A stretch of DNA of 64,000 nt from positions 4,351-68,350 of the forward strand of contig JACKFI010000003.1 in the NCBI GenBank assembly GCA_020632555.1. Reading direction: 5' to 3'. Made by a program: the position numbers and the translations under genes. The DNA is from Candidatus Omnitrophota bacterium (GTDB lineage: Bacteria; Omnitrophota; Gorgyraeia; Zapsychrales; JANLHA01). Shown here one piece after another: positions 5,837-58,782 of the stretch. The notes beneath the pieces were generated by a model, which saw only the letters and a list, made by a program, of their open reading frames with translations, did no database searches and was not told where the DNA came from. The stretch's first letter is position 1. The number at the start of each line of letters is the position of its first letter.

Positions 5837-7108
5837 ATGAATAATTACGAAAAAAAGTCTTTTACGGTTTATCTCATTGCCCTCGTTGTAATTTTGGCAA
5901 ACCTTATTATTCTTTCGGTTATTTATCAAGTCCCGTTTTTATCTGGTGTGCCTGCTGTTCGAAAAGTTTTGCCTTTGATTTCTTTTGCCGCCGTTTATCC
6001 TTTCGATTTTTTCCACAACTTTCTCCGGGAAGATTTGGCTATTCATTTTTTCTGGATCATGTTGGTTATCATATCTGGCTTTGGGTTGTTATTGTTCAAT
6101 AAATTTGCGCGAACTGTCTTTATTGTTTTTAATATCATTAATTTTGTTATTTGGGGGGTCATCTCGGTATTCTATTTTGGACAAATGGCTTTTTGGGGAT
6201 ATTTCTTTAAATGTTATTTTAATTTCGTTGCTTTTTTATTTTATGTTGGTTATTTGACTTTGCCGGAAGTTCGGCAACAATTTCAAACGGTAACCCGAGC
6301 GTTGCGGGTTAATGGCTGGTTTTTAAAGGCTCGTCGTCGGACATTGTTGCCCAAAGATGCCGCTGGATATTATAATTTGGCTTTAGCATATCATCGGTTA
6401 GGGCGGGCAGATGAATCATTGGATTTCTTATCGCGGGCCATTGCCATTGTTCCCAAAAAGGCGGATTATCATTTTGCTGTTGGACAGGTTCATTTTGATC
6501 GGCAGGATTATGGCAAGGCGATTGCCGCATTGAACGAAACGGTTCGTCTGGATCCGATTCATTTGCAGGGTCGGTATTTGTTAGGGATAGCTTATCAAAA
6601 GACCGGATGTGTAGAAGAGGCTGTTCAAGCTTTTCGTCGGTGCAGTTATTTGGAATTGAAGAATAATGCCGTTTTTCGGGATTTGGGAATAGCTTGTTAC
6701 CATGCTGGTTATTTGGAGGAAGCGCAGCAAGCTTTGCGTCGAGGCATGGAGTTGCAGCCGCAGGATCATGAATGTCCGTTTTATTTGGGCCTTGTTTTGA
6801 TGAAATATCCTAAGATGGTAAAGAATGCAGAAGAATTTCTAAAGAAATCCGTGCGACTTAACCCGAGTTTTTGTGACGGGTATCGGGAGCTAGGTAATTT
6901 GTATATTGGACAAGGAAATTATAAGGCAGCGGTTCGTGCCTTTCGGGATGTTTTGCGGTTAGATGCCAATTTGGTTCAAGTGCATTATCATTTGGGTTTT
7001 GCTTATGCAATGTTAAAAGATATGGAATCTGCTCGCAGAGAATACAAATTTTTAAAAGAGGTGGATCCTGATTTAGCGCAGACTTTGGGGTTACTTCTTA
7101 AGGATTAA
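5837..7108 (+). CDS. Membrane protein with a C-terminal TPR repeat array
   Basis: The N-terminal 150 aa carry about 4 hydrophobic helices. At least 7 TPR-like units follow (AAGYYNLALAYHRLGRADESL, YHFAVGQVHFDRQDYGKAI, GYRELGNLYIGQGNYKAAV, ...). Confidence 0.7.
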   Translation: MNNYEKKSFTVYLIALVVILANLIILSVIYQVPFLSGVPAVRKVLPLISFAAVYPFDFFHNFLREDLAIHFFWIMLVIISGFGLLLFNKFARTVFIVFNIINFVIWGVISVFYFGQMAFWGYFFKCYFNFVAFLFYVGYLTLPEVRQQFQTVTRALRVNGWFLKARRRTLLPKDAAGYYNLALAYHRLGRADESLDFLSRAIAIVPKKADYHFAVGQVHFDRQDYGKAIAALNETVRLDPIHLQGRYLLGIAYQKTGCVEEAVQAFRRCSYLELKNNAVFRDLGIACYHAGYLEEAQQALRRGMELQPQDHECPFYLGLVLMKYPKMVKNAEEFLKKSVRLNPSFCDGYRELGNLYIGQGNYKAAVRAFRDVLRLDANLVQVHYHLGFAYAMLKDMESARREYKFLKEVDPDLAQTLGLLLKD

Positions 7109-15416: not shown

Positions 15417-15421
15417 GGTTT

Positions 15422-15503
15422 GGTTTGATCAATGGCATCCTTGGGCTCAATTGTTTTGCGCCTTTATGGCGCGATTCGCCTGCAGGACGCCACTGATCAA
15501 ACC
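15422..15503. repeat. Hairpin element copy A (37-nt conserved core 15444-15480 between complementary arms)
   Basis: Arms ggtttgatcaatggcatcc (15422-15440) and ggacgccactgatcaaacc (15485-15503) are complementary at 17 of 19 positions. The core ggctcaattgttttgcgcctttatggcgcgattcgcc is shared with copies B and C. Confidence 0.8.
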
Positions 15504-15524
15504 AAATGAAATAAAGAGGATAAA

Positions 15525-37492: not shown

Positions 37493-39121
37493 ATGGCAAG
37501 GATTATTATGAATCAAAAACGTACGAAAAAAATTTGTTTTTCTTTTTGCTGGGCTGTTGTGTCGATGGGTCTGATTTTGAGTTTGTTCTCTGTTGCGGCT
37601 GCCAGTGAATCACAACAGTCTGTTGATGGTGATGAATTATTGGCAGCATCTTTGAGTGATTTGCGTGCGACAATGGAGAAAGCACGGCAGAGCAATGCTT
37701 CTTATAGTCAGCAAAATCGTTTGTTGCGTCAGCAGATTGATCAAATTCAAGAAGCGATAAATTATTTCGAAACACAAAAAGTTGTTGCTGGGCAAGATGG
37801 TGTTGAAAGTGTTGCTGGCCCTGATCTTGAAGGGGCATTGGCGGATCAGGAGAAAGCGTTGTATGAGGCGCGAGTTGAAAATTTTATGCTCAGACGAGAG
37901 CGTTTTAAAAACGAAGGTTTGCGTTTACAAAAGAAAATTCAATCTTACGATGAAGAGAATCAAATCGCGCAGCAGAATATGGCTCAGTTGGCAAAAGAAA
38001 TTGCCCAAATGGAATCTGGATTAAAAGATCAATCACCGAGCGCAAAGACTCAGGAACAGATTTCGGCTGATGTTTCCGGTGATATTTCTGATTATATAAC
38101 TCGCCGCGGTATTCTTGAGAAAAATCTGGCTTTGCAAAGAGAGATTTTGCAAAATAATGATCAGCAAAAGGCTGTTTTGGAAAAGCAACAAGCTTCACTT
38201 TTGGCAGAAATATCATCAAATCAAGAACAGTTAACTCTTTTGCAGGGAGAGAAAAAGCTGATCATTGGTGAAGTTGAGGCCGCTGGGTCGGATTTGAATC
38301 AGGGGCAGAATAATGACCGCCAAGCTGTTGTGCAGTTGCAGGATTACCGTAATCAATTGAACGCTTCTATAGCAAATTTAAAGAAAACGGCTCGAATGGT
38401 CAGCGAGAAAGATAATAGAAATCTAGAGTACGTTTTAAAAAATCTTAAACAGCAGCAGGTTTTTTTAAAACAAAAGTTGAGCATTTTGGAGAGTCGTGCA
38501 ATTCGGCCGGTTCAATCAGCGAAAGCTGCTAATGCCTTGGTAATCTCACGAAAGCGTTTATTAGAGATTCAAAAAGATTTGCAAACAAAAATTAAACATG
38601 CTCAAAAAGAATATGCCGCAGACAAGCAGTCGATCACTCAAGGCGGGGGTGTGAATGTTGTTGAATTGAATGATAAAATTGACAAAAGTTCCAAGCAGGT
38701 GCGTCATTTGCAACAACAGATTAATGAATTGCAAAGGACACCTTCGGCGGACAGTAAAAGCCAAGAGTTGGCAGCGCAAGTTGAGACTTTAGAAAAGAAT
38801 TTGCAGCTATTGCGTCGGCAGTCTAAAGACATTGCTGCCGCTGATGATGTGGTGACAATAAGCCAAGATGATGGTGCTCTTGAAGAAGAAATCAAGAGTT
38901 TGACTGCTCGACGGGATATTTTGAGCGAGTCGATTAGCGCGATTGATAATAAATATCAGAGGAGCAATCTTTTTCCGAAAGGATTCGGCGCGACAGAAGA
39001 GCAGTTGAAGGAATATCGGTCGACTTTGTCGTCGACTAATGCCGCTTTGCAAGAAAAACTTTTAGTCCTGCAAATGCGGCAAGATAAGCTGGAATCTGCC
39101 GGTGTAACTGGTTTGCAGTAA
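37493..39121 (+). CDS. Exported 542-aa Q/E/K-rich coiled-coil protein embedded in the pilus locus
   Basis: N-terminal signal/anchor KICFSFCWAVVSMGLILSLFSVAAASE. The rest has a heptad-like, low-complexity helical composition. No catalytic motif is present. Confidence 0.55.
   Translation: MARIIMNQKRTKKICFSFCWAVVSMGLILSLFSVAAASESQQSVDGDELLAASLSDLRATMEKARQSNASYSQQNRLLRQQIDQIQEAINYFETQKVVAGQDGVESVAGPDLEGALADQEKALYEARVENFMLRRERFKNEGLRLQKKIQSYDEENQIAQQNMAQLAKEIAQMESGLKDQSPSAKTQEQISADVSGDISDYITRRGILEKNLALQREILQNNDQQKAVLEKQQASLLAEISSNQEQLTLLQGEKKLIIGEVEAAGSDLNQGQNNDRQAVVQLQDYRNQLNASIANLKKTARMVSEKDNRNLEYVLKNLKQQQVFLKQKLSILESRAIRPVQSAKAANALVISRKRLLEIQKDLQTKIKHAQKEYAADKQSITQGGGVNVVELNDKIDKSSKQVRHLQQQINELQRTPSADSKSQELAAQVETLEKNLQLLRRQSKDIAAADDVVTISQDDGALEEEIKSLTARRDILSESISAIDNKYQRSNLFPKGFGATEEQLKEYRSTLSSTNAALQEKLLVLQMRQDKLESAGVTGLQ
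39024..39088. repeat. Direct repeat copy 1 (the 3' end of the coiled-coil gene)
   Basis: ctttgtcgtcgactaatgccgctttgcaagaaaaacttttagtcctgcaaatgcggcaagataag recurs at 40237-40301 with 2 substitutions. Confidence 0.9.
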
Positions 39122-40236: not shown

Positions 40237-40301
40237 CTTTGTCGTCGGCTAATGCAGCTTTGCAAGAAAAACTTTTAGTCCTGCAAATGCGGCAAGATAA
40301 A
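40237..40301. repeat. Direct repeat copy 2 (non-coding remnant of the coiled-coil gene 3' end)
   Basis: 63 of 65 nt are identical to 39024-39088. It keeps the same reading frame and runs to a TGA that lies inside the TTGACA -35 box at 40328. Confidence 0.9.
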
Positions 40302-40356: not shown

Positions 40357-40382
40357 TTCAGTGCAGCAAAGTTAAAAGATGA

Positions 40383-40470
40383 AAAAGGCAAACCACTCGC
40401 AAGGGTGGGACGCAAAGCTAAAGGGTCCCGTCGCCGGAAGGTGAAGTTTGAGGGACAGCCAGTTACCATC
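40383..40470 (+). promoter_or_regulatory. c-di-GMP-I (GEMM-I) riboswitch aptamer
   Basis: 'GGCAAACCACUCGCAAGGGUGGGACGCAAAGCU' aligns almost base for base with the V. cholerae Vc2 aptamer segment 'GGCAAACCAUUCGAAAGAGUGGGACGCAAAGCC' (recalled from the literature). The first hairpin has a GNRA (GCAA) tetraloop. A second hairpin GUCCC...GGGAC carries an internal GGAA loop, and the 3' 'AGUUACC' matches Vc2 'GGUUACC'. Confidence 0.8.
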
Positions 40471-40490
40471 AAAAGGTCAAAAGCTTATGT

Positions 40491-48966: not shown

Positions 48967-50265
48967 GTGTCGCGCGAAATTTTGGTTCACATTGGACCTG
49001 GAGAAACGCAAGCGGTCATTATTCAAGATGGCCATCTGGATGATTTTCACTTAGAAGTCGATCATCATCAATCTATTTTAGGAAACATTTATAAGGGTAA
49101 GGTTGAATCGATTTTACCGTCGATTAATGGCGCTTTTGTTAATATCGGGCAGGAAAAGAATGGGTTTTTGTATTTGACGGATGTGGTCGCCCCGCAAGTG
49201 GCTGACGAGCCTGTGGGCCCTTTGAAAATCATCAAAAAGATTTTTTCTCGTAATGAAAAAAAAGACAAGCCTGCGGAAGCCAAAGCTATTCCTCTTAAGC
49301 AAGGCCAAGAAATTTTAGTGCAAGTTGTGAAGGAACCTTTTAGTAATAAAGGGGCGAGATTGACCAGTCATATTTCTTTGGCTGGTCGTTTTGTTGTCTA
49401 TATGCCCTATGACACGCACGGAGGTGTATCTAAAAAAATTGAAAGCCACGATGAGCGTAAACGTTTACGCGGATTACTAGACGGCTTTGACTTTGTGACC
49501 ACCGGCGGTTTTATAGTGCGGACGGCTTCGCATGAAAAGGGCACACAAGAGCTGACGCGTGATGCGCGTTTTTTGTATAAAATTTGGCAGCAGATTTTAC
49601 GATTGGCCGAACAGAAACAAGCGCCGGCTTTGATTTATAAAGAATATGATTTGATTTGGAAAATTGTGCGGGATTACTTTACCAACAAAGTTGATAAATT
49701 GATTATTGATTCTAATGAAGAATATATGAAAGTTCGCAAATTCGTCGCGAATTTGATTGGTAAAGAACAGATTGAAAAAGTTCATTTGTACAGTGAGCCC
49801 ACGCCGCTTTTTGAGGCCAAGGGTGTCGCTCAGGAATTGCACAAGATTTATGATACCAAGGTAATGCTCAAATCCGGCGCGCACATTGTGATTGAGCCGA
49901 CCGAAGGTCTGATTGTGGTGGATGTTAATAGCGGTAAGTTTAAAACGCGGGCGACACCGGAAGACGCGGCTTTTATGGTGAATATGGAAGCGGCGACGGA
50001 AATTGCGCGGCAATTGCGTTTGCGGGATATGGGCGGGATTATTGTGATTGATTTTATTGATATGAGCCGTGAAGGACATAAGCGTAAAGTGATTGAAACG
50101 TTAGAGCAGGAATTGGCGCGTGATTATGCTAAAACGGAAGTGAATCGGATTTCTTCTTTAGGGTTGGTTGAAATGACGCGGGCCCGCACAGGCAAGACGT
50201 TGGAGGCGATTTCTTTTGCCGCGTGTCCGTATTGTGACGGCCGTGGGAAAATTCGGATTGAATGA
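48967..50265 (+). CDS. rng: Ribonuclease G/E-family endoribonuclease
   Basis: GTG start. S1 domain 'GNIYKGKVESILPSINGAFVNIG', catalytic-core blocks 'VVDVNSGKF' and 'GGIIVIDFIDM', and a C-terminal 'CPYCDGRG' Zn link. Confidence 0.85.
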   Translation: MSREILVHIGPGETQAVIIQDGHLDDFHLEVDHHQSILGNIYKGKVESILPSINGAFVNIGQEKNGFLYLTDVVAPQVADEPVGPLKIIKKIFSRNEKKDKPAEAKAIPLKQGQEILVQVVKEPFSNKGARLTSHISLAGRFVVYMPYDTHGGVSKKIESHDERKRLRGLLDGFDFVTTGGFIVRTASHEKGTQELTRDARFLYKIWQQILRLAEQKQAPALIYKEYDLIWKIVRDYFTNKVDKLIIDSNEEYMKVRKFVANLIGKEQIEKVHLYSEPTPLFEAKGVAQELHKIYDTKVMLKSGAHIVIEPTEGLIVVDVNSGKFKTRATPEDAAFMVNMEAATEIARQLRLRDMGGIIVIDFIDMSREGHKRKVIETLEQELARDYAKTEVNRISSLGLVEMTRARTGKTLEAISFAACPYCDGRGKIRIE

Positions 50266-50268
50266 CCG

Positions 50269-50601
50269 AGCCTGCCGACTTTGCGTGAGCAAACAAGCAG
50301 GCGAGCGACTGAACGTAGTGAAGGAGTCCCGCTTTCCCGAAGGGTAGATGCGGGAGGAATACTGCGAACTCGAGTGAAGCAGTATGATCGAATTAATAAA
50401 TATATATAAGCCTGCTGACTTTGCGTAAGCAAACAAGCAGGCGAGCGACTGAACGTAGTGAAGGAGTCCCGCTTTCCCGAAGGGTAGATGCGGGAGGAAT
50501 ACTGTGAGCGACTGAGGACGTAATGTCCGAAAGAGTGTCGTGGCCATCTGGCCAAGACCTAGAGCGAAGCAGTATGGTCGAATTAATAAATATATATAAG
50601 C
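50269..50601. repeat. GC-rich tandem repeat: a 96-nt core present twice (50269-50364 and 50409-50504) plus a shared 38-nt AT-rich tail present twice (50374-50411 and 50564-50601)
   Basis: The cores differ at 2 positions (period 140 bp). The tails read gag[t/c]gaagcagtatg[a/g]tcgaattaataaatatatataagc. Unit 2 carries an extra roughly 52-nt GC-rich insert. Confidence 0.9.
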
Positions 50602-50773
50602 TTGCGCCGTCGGCCGAGCTACGGAGAGCTCGGCGCTCCTTCGGACGTTGCGTCCTCAGTCGCGGGAGCTCCGGCATTCAACGCGTTGCAGCCATCTGGC
50701 TGCCGTGTTGATATTGGAGCATCAGCGACAATACAAGCGAAAATCAACAGTGGCTTGGTCATTGTCAAGAGGC

Positions 50774-50802
50774 TTGACAATTCTTAATATTCTGTTTAAA
50801 TA
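50774..50802 (+). promoter_or_regulatory. Sigma70-type promoter for rplU, with the -35 box inside a 9-3-9 palindrome
   Basis: TTGACA (50774-50779), 17-nt spacer, TAAATA (50797-50802). The palindrome attgtcaag-agg-cttgacaat spans 50761-50781. Confidence 0.6.
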
Positions 50803-50851
50803 CTAGCTTTCACGGGGACAGGGGTTAAATTAACAAGAGTGAGGTCATATT

Positions 50852-51163
50852 ATGTACGCGATTGTGCAAATTGGCGCAGGCCAGTACAAAGTTGAAGAAG
50901 GACAGCAAGTTGTCGTTGGAAAGTATCCGGAAGCAGAAGGCCAGACGGTGACTTTAGACAAAGTGCTTTTGGTGGCTAATGGTAATAATATTACGGTTGG
51001 CCAGCCTTTTGTCGAGGGGGCAACCATTAGTGCCAAAGTTGTTAAACAGGCTTTGGGCGAAAAAGTGGTGGCGTTTAAGTTTCGTAAACGTAAGGACTCG
51101 ATTCAAAAAATTGGTTACCGCAAGAAGATTACAGCGCTTGATATTATTAAGATTGCTGCCTAA
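50852..51163 (+). CDS. rplU: 50S ribosomal protein L21
   Basis: 'MYAIVQIGAGQYKVEEG...' is a typical L21 N-terminus. Length is 103 aa. Confidence 0.95.
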   Translation: MYAIVQIGAGQYKVEEGQQVVVGKYPEAEGQTVTLDKVLLVANGNNITVGQPFVEGATISAKVVKQALGEKVVAFKFRKRKDSIQKIGYRKKITALDIIKIAA

Positions 51164-51202
51164 GATTCTGAGGGTATTTTCCCCTAATTCAAAGGTGCGG
51201 TT

Positions 51203-52174
51203 ATGGCGTTTGTTGATGAGGTCAGGATTTTTGTTAAGGCTGGTAACGGCGGGAAAGGCTGCGAAAGTTTTTATCAAGACAAACTCAATCGATATCCTCG
51301 GCCTGACGGCGGCGACGGCGGCAAGGGCGGGGATATTACTTTTGTTGCTGACAAATCGGTGCATACATTGTTGGATTATCGTTTTAAGCAGCATTACCAA
51401 GCCGGGCGGGGCGGGCACGGCAGCAGCAAGAATTTTAAAGGCAAAAGCGGTAAGGATATTTTTTTGCGGGTCCCGATCGGGACGATCATCCGCGATTTTG
51501 ATACCAAACTTTTGATTCGTGATCTTGTTGAAGACGGCCAGTCGATTCTGGTGGCCAAAGGCGGCATCCAAGGTCGCGGGAATCACGACGGCCGACGTTC
51601 TTTGCCTCCCGGCGAGGGCGAAGCCAAAACCATTCATCTTGAGTTAAAAGTCATTGCAGATGTTGGGATTGTGGGTTTTCCCAATGCGGGCAAGTCGACG
51701 TTGATTTCTAATATTTCTAAAGTTCGTTCCAAAATTGCCAATTATCCTTTTACTACGCGCCAGCCGATTTTGGGTGTGGTGATTGGTGATGATAATTCAC
51801 ATTTTACGGTTGCGGATTTGCCCGGCTTGATTGAAGGGGCGCATTTGGGCAAAGGTTTGGGCGACCGATTTTTAAAACATGCGGAACGCACAAAGATTTT
51901 AATTCATTTATTGGATATGGCCGGCAGTGAGTGTCGGGATCCTTTGGACGATTATGACAAGATTAAGAATGAATTAGAGCTTTATAGTGATAAGTTGGCT
52001 TTAAAGATTCGTTTGGTGGTGGCCAATAAAATGGACCTGCCTGAGGCGGCCGCGAATTTGAAACGTTTTAAACGAAAATACAAAAAAGAAGAAATTCTCA
52101 GCATTTCAGCTTTAGAGGGTAAAGGTTTAGACAAGCTGGTTGCGCGCCTGCGGGAGTTATTGGATAAAAAGTAG
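51203..52174 (+). CDS. obg: GTPase Obg/CgtA
   Basis: Obg fold 'FVDEVRIFVKAGNGGKG...GGDGGKGGD'. G1 'GFPNAGKST', G3 'DLPGLIEGA', G4 'NKMD'. Confidence 0.95.
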   Translation: MAFVDEVRIFVKAGNGGKGCESFYQDKLNRYPRPDGGDGGKGGDITFVADKSVHTLLDYRFKQHYQAGRGGHGSSKNFKGKSGKDIFLRVPIGTIIRDFDTKLLIRDLVEDGQSILVAKGGIQGRGNHDGRRSLPPGEGEAKTIHLELKVIADVGIVGFPNAGKSTLISNISKVRSKIANYPFTTRQPILGVVIGDDNSHFTVADLPGLIEGAHLGKGLGDRFLKHAERTKILIHLLDMAGSECRDPLDDYDKIKNELELYSDKLALKIRLVVANKMDLPEAAANLKRFKRKYKKEEILSISALEGKGLDKLVARLRELLDKK

Positions 52175-52211: not shown

Positions 52212-52291
52212 TTGATAAATAATTTTTGTAGGGAACGGTCGCGACCGTTCCTTGTCCGTTGCGAATTTGGGCAACGCTGCCAGAATTGGGA
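52212..52291. repeat. 80-bp direct repeat copy 1 (contains the 20-bp perfect palindrome 52232-52251)
   Basis: ttgataaataatttttgtagggaacggtcgcgaccgttccttgtccgttgcgaatttgggcaacgctgccagaattggga recurs at 52669-52748 with 78 of 80 nt identical. Confidence 0.9.
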
Positions 52292-52316
52292 CAACTGGGA
52301 ACCACATCGAGGAGTC

Positions 52317-52631
52317 ATGAAAGAGAATTCTAGAGATTTTTTGTATGGTTTTGTTATTGTTATTGTCGCGATAGCTATTGAGTTGGGTACTTTGAAACCC
52401 GTTGCAATGAACTTGGGTGATCATGGAAATATTCTGGCAGGGGTATGTTTAAGCCTTACGCCGTTGATATTGTTGGCTTTGTGTGTATTTTTTATTATTA
52501 AAAAAAGAGCGTCAATTAGTATTGGCATTATCCTTGGGATTTTGGCTATTATTGGTGTAATTGCTTTAAACTCATGGGAGCGAACGCCATTATCATCTTG
52601 GGAGAGATCGGCAATTGAAAGTAACCATTAA
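52317..52631 (+). CDS. Small (104-aa) 3-TM membrane protein, hypothetical
   Basis: The ATG at 52317 comes 5 nt after GAGGAG. Three hydrophobic helices. The upstream part of the track ORF (52140-52316) lies in the repeat and the obg 3' region. Confidence 0.55.
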   Translation: MKENSRDFLYGFVIVIVAIAIELGTLKPVAMNLGDHGNILAGVCLSLTPLILLALCVFFIIKKRASISIGIILGILAIIGVIALNSWERTPLSSWERSAIESNH

Positions 52632-52668
52632 TCTCAAAGATAAAATTTAGGAGCTGTCCCAACAATTG

Positions 52669-52748
52669 TTGATAAATAATTTTTGTAGGGAACGGTCGCG
52701 ACCGTTTCTTGTCCGTTGTGAATTTGGGCAACGCTGCCAGAATTGGGA
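52669..52748. repeat. 80-bp direct repeat copy 2
   Basis: See copy 1. The two substitutions are C to T: one breaks the palindrome and the other keeps the second hairpin paired as G.U. Confidence 0.9.
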
Positions 52749-55157: not shown

Positions 55158-55301
55158 GGTTTCGTTATGTATATAAAGGGAAATTGTTTGATCTGGCTGT
55201 GGTTTGTTCTGAGAATGACTTTGGACGCTCGCCAAACTCGCGCAGGACAACAAATCATCCTAGCAAATAAAAATATTAAGTAAGTTAAAGAAGGCAAGAT
55301 A

Positions 55302-55380
55302 CGAAGGTTTGGGTGATTTTACGGCTCAATTGTTTTGCGCGTCTATCGCGCCATTTGCCTTACAATCATCCAAACCTTCG
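55302..55380. repeat. Hairpin element copy C (core 55323-55359)
   Basis: Arms cgaaggtttgggtgatt (55302-55318) and aatcatccaaaccttcg (55364-55380) are complementary with one G.T pair. The core is ggctcaattgttttgcgcgtctatcgcgccatttgcc. Confidence 0.8.
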
Positions 55381-55401
55381 CATCAATTAAAAGAGAACAG
55401 C

Positions 55402-58086: not shown

Positions 58087-58782
58087 ATGTTGATCAACAA
58101 ATTTTTCCTACGGCTGTTTTTCTTTCTTTCCTTTCTGAGTGTGTCTTTTTTATTTCTGCCAAATTGTGCCTTGGCCAATAACTTAACAATTAGCAATGTC
58201 ACGCTCGAAGACCGCAATGCGACAGCCAACACGATGGTGGTGCAGTTTGATATCAGCTGGGATCACAGCTGGCGCAAAGACGACGGTCGCCACGACGCGG
58301 CGTGGGTGTTTGTCAAGCTTTACCAAAATTCCACCGCCCCGTGGGTGCACGGCAAACTTTACACCGCAGGAACCAATCCGGTCGGTGGGTCCTCGGGTTC
58401 GAATCCCGACTTGAAGATTGTTGTCCCCTCAGACAAAATCGGCGCGTTTATTTCCCGCACGGCCACTGGCCGTGGCACCTTTTCTTCCAAAAAAGTACGT
58501 TTGGTGGTCGACTACGGCAGCAGCGGCTTGGCCGTACCGCATCGTGGCGAGGCCGAGTCCTTTTCGGCAGAAGTTAGGAAACTTCTGCCAAAGCGTCAAC
58601 CATCAAGGTTGATGCGAGAGTGCAGAAGTCAGGAAACTTCTGCCGAAGCAATCCTTAGAGTATATGATAAAGTGGTTAGTAGTGTCTTTGCGAGGAGACA
58701 TTCAGTTGTTCACGGCGACGTGGCAATCTTGAAGGAACAGGCTTTAGGGGTTAGGTGGTGGACTGTAGATGCTGGACACTGA
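58087..58782 (+). CDS. Hypothetical exported protein; the 3' third probably reads through palindromic repeats
   Basis: The ATG at 58087 gives the signal-like sequence MLINKFFLRLFFFLSFLSVSFLFLPNCALA. 58200-58560 is visibly GC-richer than its neighbours. The last roughly 75 codons overlap hairpin repeats at 58551-58730. Confidence 0.35.
   Translation: MLINKFFLRLFFFLSFLSVSFLFLPNCALANNLTISNVTLEDRNATANTMVVQFDISWDHSWRKDDGRHDAAWVFVKLYQNSTAPWVHGKLYTAGTNPVGGSSGSNPDLKIVVPSDKIGAFISRTATGRGTFSSKKVRLVVDYGSSGLAVPHRGEAESFSAEVRKLLPKRQPSRLMRECRSQETSAEAILRVYDKVVSSVFARRHSVVHGDVAILKEQALGVRWWTVDAGH
58566..58643. repeat. Two near-identical perfect hairpins flanking a third hairpin
   Basis: ggcagaagtt-agg-aaacttctgcc (58566-58589), gtcaacc-atca-aggttgat (58595-58613) and gcagaagtc-agg-aaacttctgc (58622-58643). 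These are followed by cgaagcaatcc and by the 58684-58730 copy of the GTCTTTGCGAG family. Confidence 0.75.

Follow-up and report, generated by a model that had tools for sequence, protein, structure and literature searches.

Structured or repeated elements of several described kinds occupy spacers between bacterial genes. The REP/BIME elements of enterobacteria are GC-rich imperfect palindromes that lie 3' of genes or between cistrons, among co-directional genes, and form mosaics of direct and inverted copies; as RNA, REP/BIME hairpins block 3'-exonucleases and punctuate operon mRNAs. Individual REPs are ~35 nt long and linked to RAYT transposases, with hundreds of copies dispersed through a genome. 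Minisatellites of the MIRU/variable-number tandem repeat (VNTR) type, such as those of mycobacteria, are head-to-tail repeats of tens to ~100 bp in operon spacers that vary between lineages and originate by slippage or unequal recombination; MIRUs occupy ~40 loci per genome and often contain short overlapping open reading frames (ORFs). Near-identical tandem structured units and AU-rich tracts in mRNA 3' regions are features of small RNAs (sRNAs) of the PrrF1/PrrF2 type and of the CpxQ/SroC type, the latter derived by RNase E from 3' untranslated regions (UTRs), and the L21 leader of Bacilli (Rfam RF00559) is a structured noncoding region directly upstream of rplU. Here, we describe two near-identical, hairpin-rich units arranged head to tail between rng (an Rne/Rng family ribonuclease gene) and rplU (50S ribosomal protein L21) in a Candidatus Omnitrophota bacterium (GenBank assembly GCA_020632555.1). 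They lie in a stretch of 64,000 nt, referred to below as the window (contig JACKFI010000003.1, positions 4,351 to 68,350, forward strand), and all coordinates count from its first nucleotide.

The Omnitrophota spacer resembles REP/BIME mosaics in containing hairpins, direct repeats, and one 33-nt inverted repeat; minisatellites in its head-to-tail copies; and the sRNA systems in its near-identical structured units, position in an mRNA 3' region, and AU-rich tracts. It also differs from each. Unlike REPs, the units are 140 nt long and were seen at a single locus, neither the 64-kb window nor a covariance-model search of 450 kb of Omnitrophota loci giving a further copy; unlike MIRUs, they amount to one locus with two copies and no ORF with a homologue. 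In contrast to independent sRNA genes, they show neither a promoter nor an intrinsic terminator of their own in a consensus scan, and they are not conserved beyond one lineage. In contrast to the L21 leader, they lie upstream of the putative rplU promoter rather than in the leader, with no cmscan match at E values up to 10. By analogy, the element would work most like REP/BIME-type intercistronic hairpins, and it looks most like a MIRU/VNTR-type minisatellite, but membership of either family is not demonstrated because dispersed copies are missing. It is not an Rfam family, a miniature inverted-repeat transposable element (MITE), a diversity-generating retroelement (DGR) repeat pair, or an L21 leader.

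We consider it probable, if well short of certain, that the units arose by a recent, lineage-specific head-to-tail duplication in the rng-rplU spacer, which is hypervariable and rich in hairpins, and that they are transcribed as a 3' extension of rng. The spacer is a mosaic of GC-rich hairpin modules; among close relatives, such modules have come and gone, been inverted, and been duplicated anew locally. The units are the newest layer of this mosaic, and they belong to no RNA family or dispersed repeat that could be found by the searches described below.

The tandem units

The two units comprise the following features.

50269..50367, plus strand: core of unit 1, from the repeat search; fold of -39.3 kcal/mol, z = -3.2
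50270-50302, plus strand: hairpin 1 of unit 1, with a GUGA loop, in the minimum-free-energy fold
50303-50313, plus strand: linker of the unit 1 core
50314-50366, plus strand: extended hairpin of unit 1, enclosing hairpin 2 at 50327-50355
50368..50408, plus strand: AT-rich tail of unit 1, 27% GC, with 3' end AAUUAAUAAAUAUAUAUA
50409..50507, plus strand: core of unit 2, with a GUAA loop, 97% identical to the unit 1 core; fold of -37.1 kcal/mol, z = -3.4
50508..50565, plus strand: extra segment of unit 2, containing an inverted repeat and direct repeat D4
50566..50601, plus strand: AT-rich tail of unit 2

A repeat search of the window returned the cores as a direct repeat of 99 nt at 97% identity, with starts 140 nt apart. 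A reading of the locus made from the sequence alone, before any search (the sequence-only reading), had described a 96-nt core occurring twice with two differences. This is exact within those 96 nt (C/T at 50276/50416 and G/A at 50287/50427); the repeat extends 3 nt farther and takes in a third difference (C/T at 50365/50505) just outside them. All three differences are transitions, and the longest run identical between the cores is 77 nt. The AT-rich tails form a second direct repeat of 50 nt (50366-50415 and 50556-50605; 90% identity, 190 nt apart), within which the tail string first written down matches over 36 nt (50376-50411 and 50566-50601) rather than the 38 nt given for it. The GC-rich insert of 52 nt ascribed to unit 2 is present as an extra segment, although the net gain is ~50 nt (190 nt in unit 2 versus 140 nt in unit 1). 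Tandem Repeats Finder did not call the array, which we attribute to its having only ~1.7 uninterrupted periods. Neither hairpin nor the tail had a further copy in the window at up to three mismatches, where shuffled controls expect none.

The description of the region as strikingly GC rich holds only in moderation. GC content is 55 to 58% in the cores and 49.5% over 50269-50601 overall, compared with a window mean of 42.5% (standard deviation, 6%; 100-nt windows), and the sharpest peak of the window (69%, at 50584-50736) lies downstream of the tandem units. Pure A/U tracts of 19 nt separate the hairpin blocks at ~50390-50408 and 50580-50598, and Shine-Dalgarno (SD)-like motifs, GAAGGAG and GGGAGGA, stand on either side of hairpin 2.

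Both hairpins drawn in the sequence-only reading appear in the minimum-free-energy fold of each core. The folds of the plus strand are more stable relative to shuffles than those of the minus strand (z = -2.2 and -2.9 for units 1 and 2), and the entire 586-nt spacer folds with z of about -8 on both strands, as expected because the region is full of inverted repeats. The sequence-only reading had noted that a GNRA loop is kept and that a C/A mismatch becomes a U-A pair, but the copy differences carry no weight as an argument for structure. The tetraloop change replaces one purine by another, and the other two turn C·A into U-A and G-C into G·U; the fold tolerates all three. Since ~37% of core positions are unpaired and, by estimate, about half of the transitions at paired positions are tolerated on a given strand, roughly one-third of random substitution triples would be equally compatible, and the three substitutions say nothing about structure. 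There is no evidence for RNA-level selection on the units.

The spacer in related genomes

The sequence-only reading had proposed comparing rng-rplU spacers among relatives and had named a spacer absent from or unconserved in close relatives, and untranscribed, as a result that would speak against its proposals. We gathered orthologous loci by exact-protein look-ups and a scan of GTDB representative genomes and compared spacer lengths at 66 loci (loci and contigs carry L numbers below). At 586 nt, the window spacer is the longest noncoding one among them. Six relatives with 89 to 92% Rng identity (L005, L007, L008, L018, L021, and L024) have an empty site, with spacers of 86 to 93 nt made up of the rng stop codon, ~10 nt, a conserved promoter-like element (CTTGAC...TTAAAT), and a leader that is likewise conserved. 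Both recur at 50774-50851 of the window, which therefore carries an insertion of ~500 nt (~50269-50770). The tandem units were missing from every relative at 85 to 92% Rng identity and from all of the more than 60 orthologous spacers, so that absence is largely what the comparison returned. Such absence, with six relatives lacking any insertion, does not support a conserved functional RNA, for which presence and covariation in relatives would be expected.

A neighbor-joining tree of Rng places the window and L001 as sister to L023 with L024 and L025, followed by a clade without modules (L005, L007, L008, and L018), with the module-bearing L010 and L012 basal. The nearest neighbors L024 and L025 differ in having no modules versus 108 nt of modules. 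Taken together, tree and module distribution point to repeated loss of older modules, which are probably ancestral, and to the units as a new gain. Different GC-rich inserts occupy the same spot in L020, L023, L012, and L025, and the rng-rplU site is a hot spot for insertion and rearrangement.

Other loci of the clade vary at or near this site in ways of their own. In L028 (87% Rng identity), a 572-nt cassette fills this site, downstream of the rng stop codon and ahead of the rplU promoter (1162-1759); its 175-aa ORF resembles a signal-peptide protein, and the cassette is bordered by 26-nt direct repeats, AAxAAGTAGGGACAGACCCTACTTAT, each of which contains a hairpin and overlaps a stop codon. 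In L020 (89% Rng identity), another GC-rich sequence, ACGGCCGGCTTCGCGCGGAGCGCTC, directly follows the rng stop codon (2778-2802), where the contig also terminates, a hint that this site holds yet another repeat or variable insert. L010 and L011 have identical Rng proteins, and the rplU leader of L011 (~1525-1575) has an extra GC hairpin pair, CCGCCTGAGGCGG and TCCGCCTTTGGCGGA, just upstream of the Shine-Dalgarno sequence, a further sign of fast hairpin turnover in the clade.

The duplication in a sister lineage

Four independent Logan contigs of a sister lineage (L001 to L004) are identical to the window over the first 33 nt after the rng stop, and all of them then end, exactly one 31-mer past position 50268. 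Sequencing runs SRR12767646, SRR26425192, SRR26424788, and SRR26425191 belong to this lineage, and SRR12358676 belongs to the strain of the window. The tandem junction reads TATATATA|AGCCTGC (in longer form, TATATATA|AGCCTGCTGAC). In an assembly graph with k = 31, which this argument assumes, a 31-mer starting from the A of AGCCTGCC with two predecessors (TATA|AGCC and CCG|AGCC) would stop contigs just as observed. The contig ends therefore fit a second copy with a different preceding base, which argues that the duplication is real and present in both lineages and that the junction is unlikely to be an assembly artefact. The units were found in these two lineages only. At the DNA level, their rng genes share 93% identity, and third codon positions account for 88 of the 92 mismatches. 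The 33 identical nucleotides do not indicate selection, as such a run is expected with a probability of ~0.09 (0.93^33) and the pilQ-rng spacer is also 93% identical. Two further contigs, L016 and L017, match the window identically from 50644 and 50754 onwards, respectively, and 50299-50643 lies outside every independent contig retrieved. An exact-protein look-up of the window Rng found the protein not on record.

Older modules and the origin of the pieces

Three modules lie in the downstream third of the insertion (50599-50781), which predates the tandem units.

50599..50682, plus strand: M1 (AGCTTGCGCC ... GGGAGCTCCGGCATTCAAC), also in L010, L011, L012, L023, and L025
50609-50663, plus strand: M3 (GTCGGCC, a hairpin, then CTCCTTCGGACGTTGCGTCCTCAGTCGC), which interrupts M1 and is shared with L025 only
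50678..50711, plus strand: M2-like hairpin UCAACGCG-UU-GCAGCC-AUCU-GGCUGC-CGUGUUGA, core of a long irregular hairpin at 50659-50729

M1, also written CTTGCGCCGTCG..GGAGCTCCGGCATCAA, and M2, common to the same five loci, are alone in being shared among relatives' spacers, apart from M3 in L025. The M1/M2 loci correspond to L010 3797-3870, L012 3806-3925, L023 3800-3895, and L025 1779-1900. M2 counterparts in these four are hairpins of 14 to 16 bp with a 3' AA bulge, and their 3' arm overlaps the rplU -35 box. In L010 and L012 a T-run follows, so that M2 looks like, and probably is, a terminator of rng. An RNAalifold consensus recovered the M2 hairpin only partly, with one compensatory pair, and M1 likewise has one. 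In M1, the core GAGCTC is invariant, and in the window and three of the four relatives it forms part of the longer palindrome GGAGCTCC. M3 lies on the other side of a TTGCGCC motif in L025, i.e., at a different position relative to M1, and is flanked by GTCG(G/C).

Part of unit 2 can be traced to these modules. Its extra segment contains, at 50508-50540, an inverted copy of the M3 part 50631-50663 (33 nt, 85% complementary; none of 500 shuffles reached the score), and a small hairpin at ~50538-50556 has the same top, GCCAUCUGGC, as 50691-50700 in the M2-like hairpin. Three copies of the motif GAGCGACTGA run in direct orientation, and one further, inverted copy comprises its core, GCGACTGA. The wobble pairs of the 33-nt inverted repeat (four G·U versus one A·C) do not allow a strand to be chosen: the excess is not significant (~0.19 by estimate) and is also expected because the plus strand is G+T rich. 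We rejected the idea that the tail decayed from a copy of the rng 3' end or the rplU promoter, because alignment scores were at the shuffle mean.

Searches for known families and further copies

With Rfam 15 at the gathering threshold, the only match in the entire window was a c-di-GMP-I-GGC riboswitch at 40378-40471, and the units matched no family. At E values up to 10, the region 50150-50900 gave a single chance match to SAM-SAH (16.6 bits, 50686-50721), and ARAGORN found no tRNA or tmRNA. These results rule out a known RNA family and bear out the earlier remark that the region could not be matched to RNase P, tmRNA, signal recognition particle RNA, 6S RNA, or known ribosomal protein leaders; a match of the core to a known family, which would have undone the sequence-only reading, did not turn up. 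A group II intron domain V was rejected for hairpin 1 (reversed bulge asymmetry and no Intron_gpII match), as was a hammerhead or other self-cleaving ribozyme in a rolling-circle-like tandem (core motifs absent on inspection and no Rfam match). A DGR template/variable repeat pair was also discarded, the differences between the copies (C/T, G/A, and C/T) being adenine-specific on neither strand. The units do not code for protein in any recognizable way, as stated earlier: the 140-nt period is not a multiple of 3, and the ORFs across them (42 to 143 aa, both strands) have no homologue among 5.8 billion predicted proteins, a comparison of translated frames that was aimed at spurious ORF calls on other copies.

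Searches of large collections used exact patterns of 25 to 33 nt. No match was found to the hairpin-1 pattern in GTDB representative genomes, to a 27-mer of hairpin 2 in JGI metagenomes, or to the core in IMG/VR (exact patterns) or in phage and plasmid collections (blastn). A covariance model built from the two cores (R1) found no further copy in the window or in 71 loci (~450 kb, nearly all Omnitrophota). A gapped hairpin-1 pattern hit four hairpins in JGI contigs that are unrelated beyond the hairpin and were set aside (one coding, two in another conserved element, and one intergenic in a different organism).

Two unrelated JGI contigs, L103 (~1050-1150) and L106 (~5950-6050), share a conserved structured stretch of ~90 nt that consists of GGCGTATCG, a hairpin, GGACGATAGCCCGACAGGCCTGCCGTATTTGCGYGAGCAAAAGGCAGGC, and a C/A-rich tail. 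It surfaced through its last hairpin, which resembles hairpin 1, and may be an unrelated noncoding RNA.

Flanking genes and transcription signals

The genes and signals that border the insertion are as follows.

48967..50265, plus strand: rng, Rne/Rng family ribonuclease, 432 aa (NCBIfam TIGR00757, E = 1.2e-135)
50761..50781, plus strand: terminator-like hairpin AUUGUCAAG-AGG-CUUGACAAU, then UCUUAAUAUU; the rplU -35 box falls within the 3' arm of the hairpin
50774..50801, plus strand: putative rplU promoter, TTGACA-16 nt-TTAAAT, from sequence comparison
50852..51163, plus strand: rplU, 50S ribosomal protein L21 (TIGR00061, E = 1.6e-31)

The two protein family matches confirm the placement of the units between rng and rplU. 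The rng stop codon (TGA) is at 50263-50265, named homologues of the ribonuclease are all from Candidatus Omnitrophota, and rng-rplU synteny is kept across the phylum, with a type IV pilus secretin gene upstream of rng and obg directly downstream of rplU in the window. In the window, as in all of its close relatives (including L005, L007, L008, L010, and L012), obg follows rplU at a distance of 40 nt (51163-51203 in the window), and rpmA (L27) is absent from the gap. The window Obg is a short form of 323 aa without the C-terminal domain of the 429-position model.

A scan for consensus promoters and terminators, the only method applied here, found no promoter-like or terminator-like site on either strand in 50266-50760, tails included, in agreement with the earlier failure to recognize a promoter for unit 1. 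The site at 50761-50781 is the sole terminator-like one between rng and rplU. The putative rplU promoter is kept in all close relatives, where it begins ~10 nt after the rng stop codon, and its register is absent from the consensus-scan list.

A young duplication in a probable rng 3' extension

Because the units are co-directional with rng and no terminator-like site precedes 50761-50781, transcription from rng probably runs on into them, so that they would form a 3' extension of its mRNA or an intercistronic segment between rng and rplU. Of the proposals in the sequence-only reading, a structured 3' UTR of rng is therefore the most plausible as a transcriptional context, but not as a conserved functional RNA. 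The tandem copy, together with the inverted copy in unit 2, probably arose through recombination (slipped-strand or unequal) between short direct repeats and by template switching at inverted repeats. If the units are transcribed, their stable hairpins would act as barriers to 3'-exonucleases, by analogy with REP/BIME. RNase E/G prefers single-stranded AU-rich sites, and the 19-nt A/U tracts between the hairpins would be natural cleavage sites for an enzyme of this type. The duplication may well be selectively neutral.

Several points weigh against this account. Transcription, 3' ends, and processing of the units are all deduced from sequence. Exact-pattern searches of the large collections would miss diverged copies elsewhere, and the part of the source genome searched was 64 kb, so that a low-copy dispersed family is possible. 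As to where the core came from, its linker and hairpin 2 show a marginal similarity to inverted M3 (21 of 500 shuffles reached the score). Finally, the units are shared with the sister lineage, whose rng has 93% DNA identity to that of the window; they are hence not brand new and may be under some constraint.

As it stands, the finding matters little beyond marking the rng-rplU spacer of one Omnitrophota clade as a hot spot of module turnover over short evolutionary distances. It also offers a caution for RNA-motif hunting, in that strong structure, GC richness, and duplication do not by themselves make a segment a conserved RNA.

Alternative explanations

That the units are functional small RNAs, either tandem sRNA genes or 3' UTR-derived sRNAs or decoys freed by RNase E/G cleavage in the AU tracts and possibly feeding back on rng, seems to us unlikely. 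The stable fold and its plus-strand bias, the 77 consecutive nucleotides identical between copies, the pure A/U single-stranded tracts between hairpin blocks, the position immediately downstream of an RNase E/G gene, and the presence of the units in two lineages with 93% identical rng genes would all suit such RNAs. However, neither unit has a promoter-like or terminator-like site beside it in the consensus scan, which tells against the tandem small RNAs proposed in the sequence-only reading; the units are missing from all other relatives; two copies at 97% identity are too alike to show covariation; and neither the three substitutions nor the 4:1 excess of G·U over A·C is significant by estimate, the latter being the kind of bias that a G+T-rich plus strand gives. 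A bolder version, to which we give little credence, is that the units represent a recently arisen pair of structured RNAs cut from the rng 3' UTR by the rng-encoded RNase E/G homologue at ~50390-50408 and 50580-50598, forming a lineage-specific feedback or decoy loop on the main endoribonuclease that was amplified by tandem duplication. If it were true that the RNase cleaves its own mRNA and thereby sets the units free as stable RNAs, this would be a case of the birth of a 3' UTR-derived RNA and of RNase autoregulation in an uncultured phylum.

We also find it improbable that the units and neighboring modules are small nonautonomous mobile hairpin elements (REP/BIME, MITE, or palindrome-associated) that target the site after the rng stop. 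The differing GC-rich inserts at this site and the repeat-flanked ORF cassette of L028, the patchy presence of modules among very close relatives (e.g., L024 versus L025), the shifted placement of M3 between flanking GTCG(G/C) in L025 and the window, and the mosaic organization with inverted copies speak for mobility. This hairpin-rich, mosaic look also fits the cluster of REP-like elements that the sequence-only reading had considered; the copy number does not, as there is no second locus in 64 kb of the source genome or 450 kb of relatives, and large collections gave no match. Moreover, the units lack terminal inverted repeats such as a MITE would have, and there is no convincing target-site duplication: the whole insertion is flanked merely by GAG microhomology, and the 12-nt inverted repeat that brackets it (50261-50272 and 50752-50763) is at chance level (~0.4 expected by estimate). 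Duplication and deletion between short direct repeats can explain the rearrangements.

A cis-regulatory structure for the rplU-obg operon, whether a ribosomal protein leader or an attenuator or insulator of read-through, is more doubtful still. The units do lie upstream of rplU, SD-like motifs stand beside hairpin 2, and M2, the older hairpin, reaches into the -35 box of rplU in several relatives, but the units are upstream of the conserved promoter and thus outside its leader, match neither L21_leader nor any other Rfam leader at E values up to 10, and are dispensed with by relatives. Least credible, to the point of being nearly negligible, is that two strain variants of a single unit were placed in series during assembly: no independent contig retrieved covers 50299-50643 and all short-read assemblies of the locus break inside the insertion, yet the junction of tail 1 and core 2 shares only AGC with alternative junctions, so that a k-mer graph could not make it without real reads, the sister-lineage contigs end exactly where a second copy with a different preceding base predicts, and the copies differ by three single-nucleotide polymorphisms and a 50-nt segment.

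Other repeats in the window

Young local duplications are evidently common in the source genome, with two further direct repeats at 97 to 98% identity. An 80-nt repeat (98% identity; 52212-52291 and 52669-52748) flanks a 377-nt segment between obg and proB that contains a predicted small membrane-protein ORF of ~104 aa (ATG at 52318, end at 52631). The proB start marks the end of the second copy, and the independent contig L016 stops 30 nt into the first; 52212-52748 looks like a small gene cassette inserted together with a duplicated proB upstream region. A 64-nt repeat (97% identity; 39024-39087 and 40237-40300, 1213 nt apart) has its second copy ~80 nt upstream of the c-di-GMP-I-GGC riboswitch (61.2 bits, gathering score 59), and no second riboswitch follows the first copy. 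A whole-window scan also returned inverted repeats at 55298-55384, 15419-15506, and 58563-58647 (23 to 28 nt, 81 to 91% complementary, with loops of 31 to 42 nt), the first two of which share a 38-nt direct-repeat family at 15444 and 55323.

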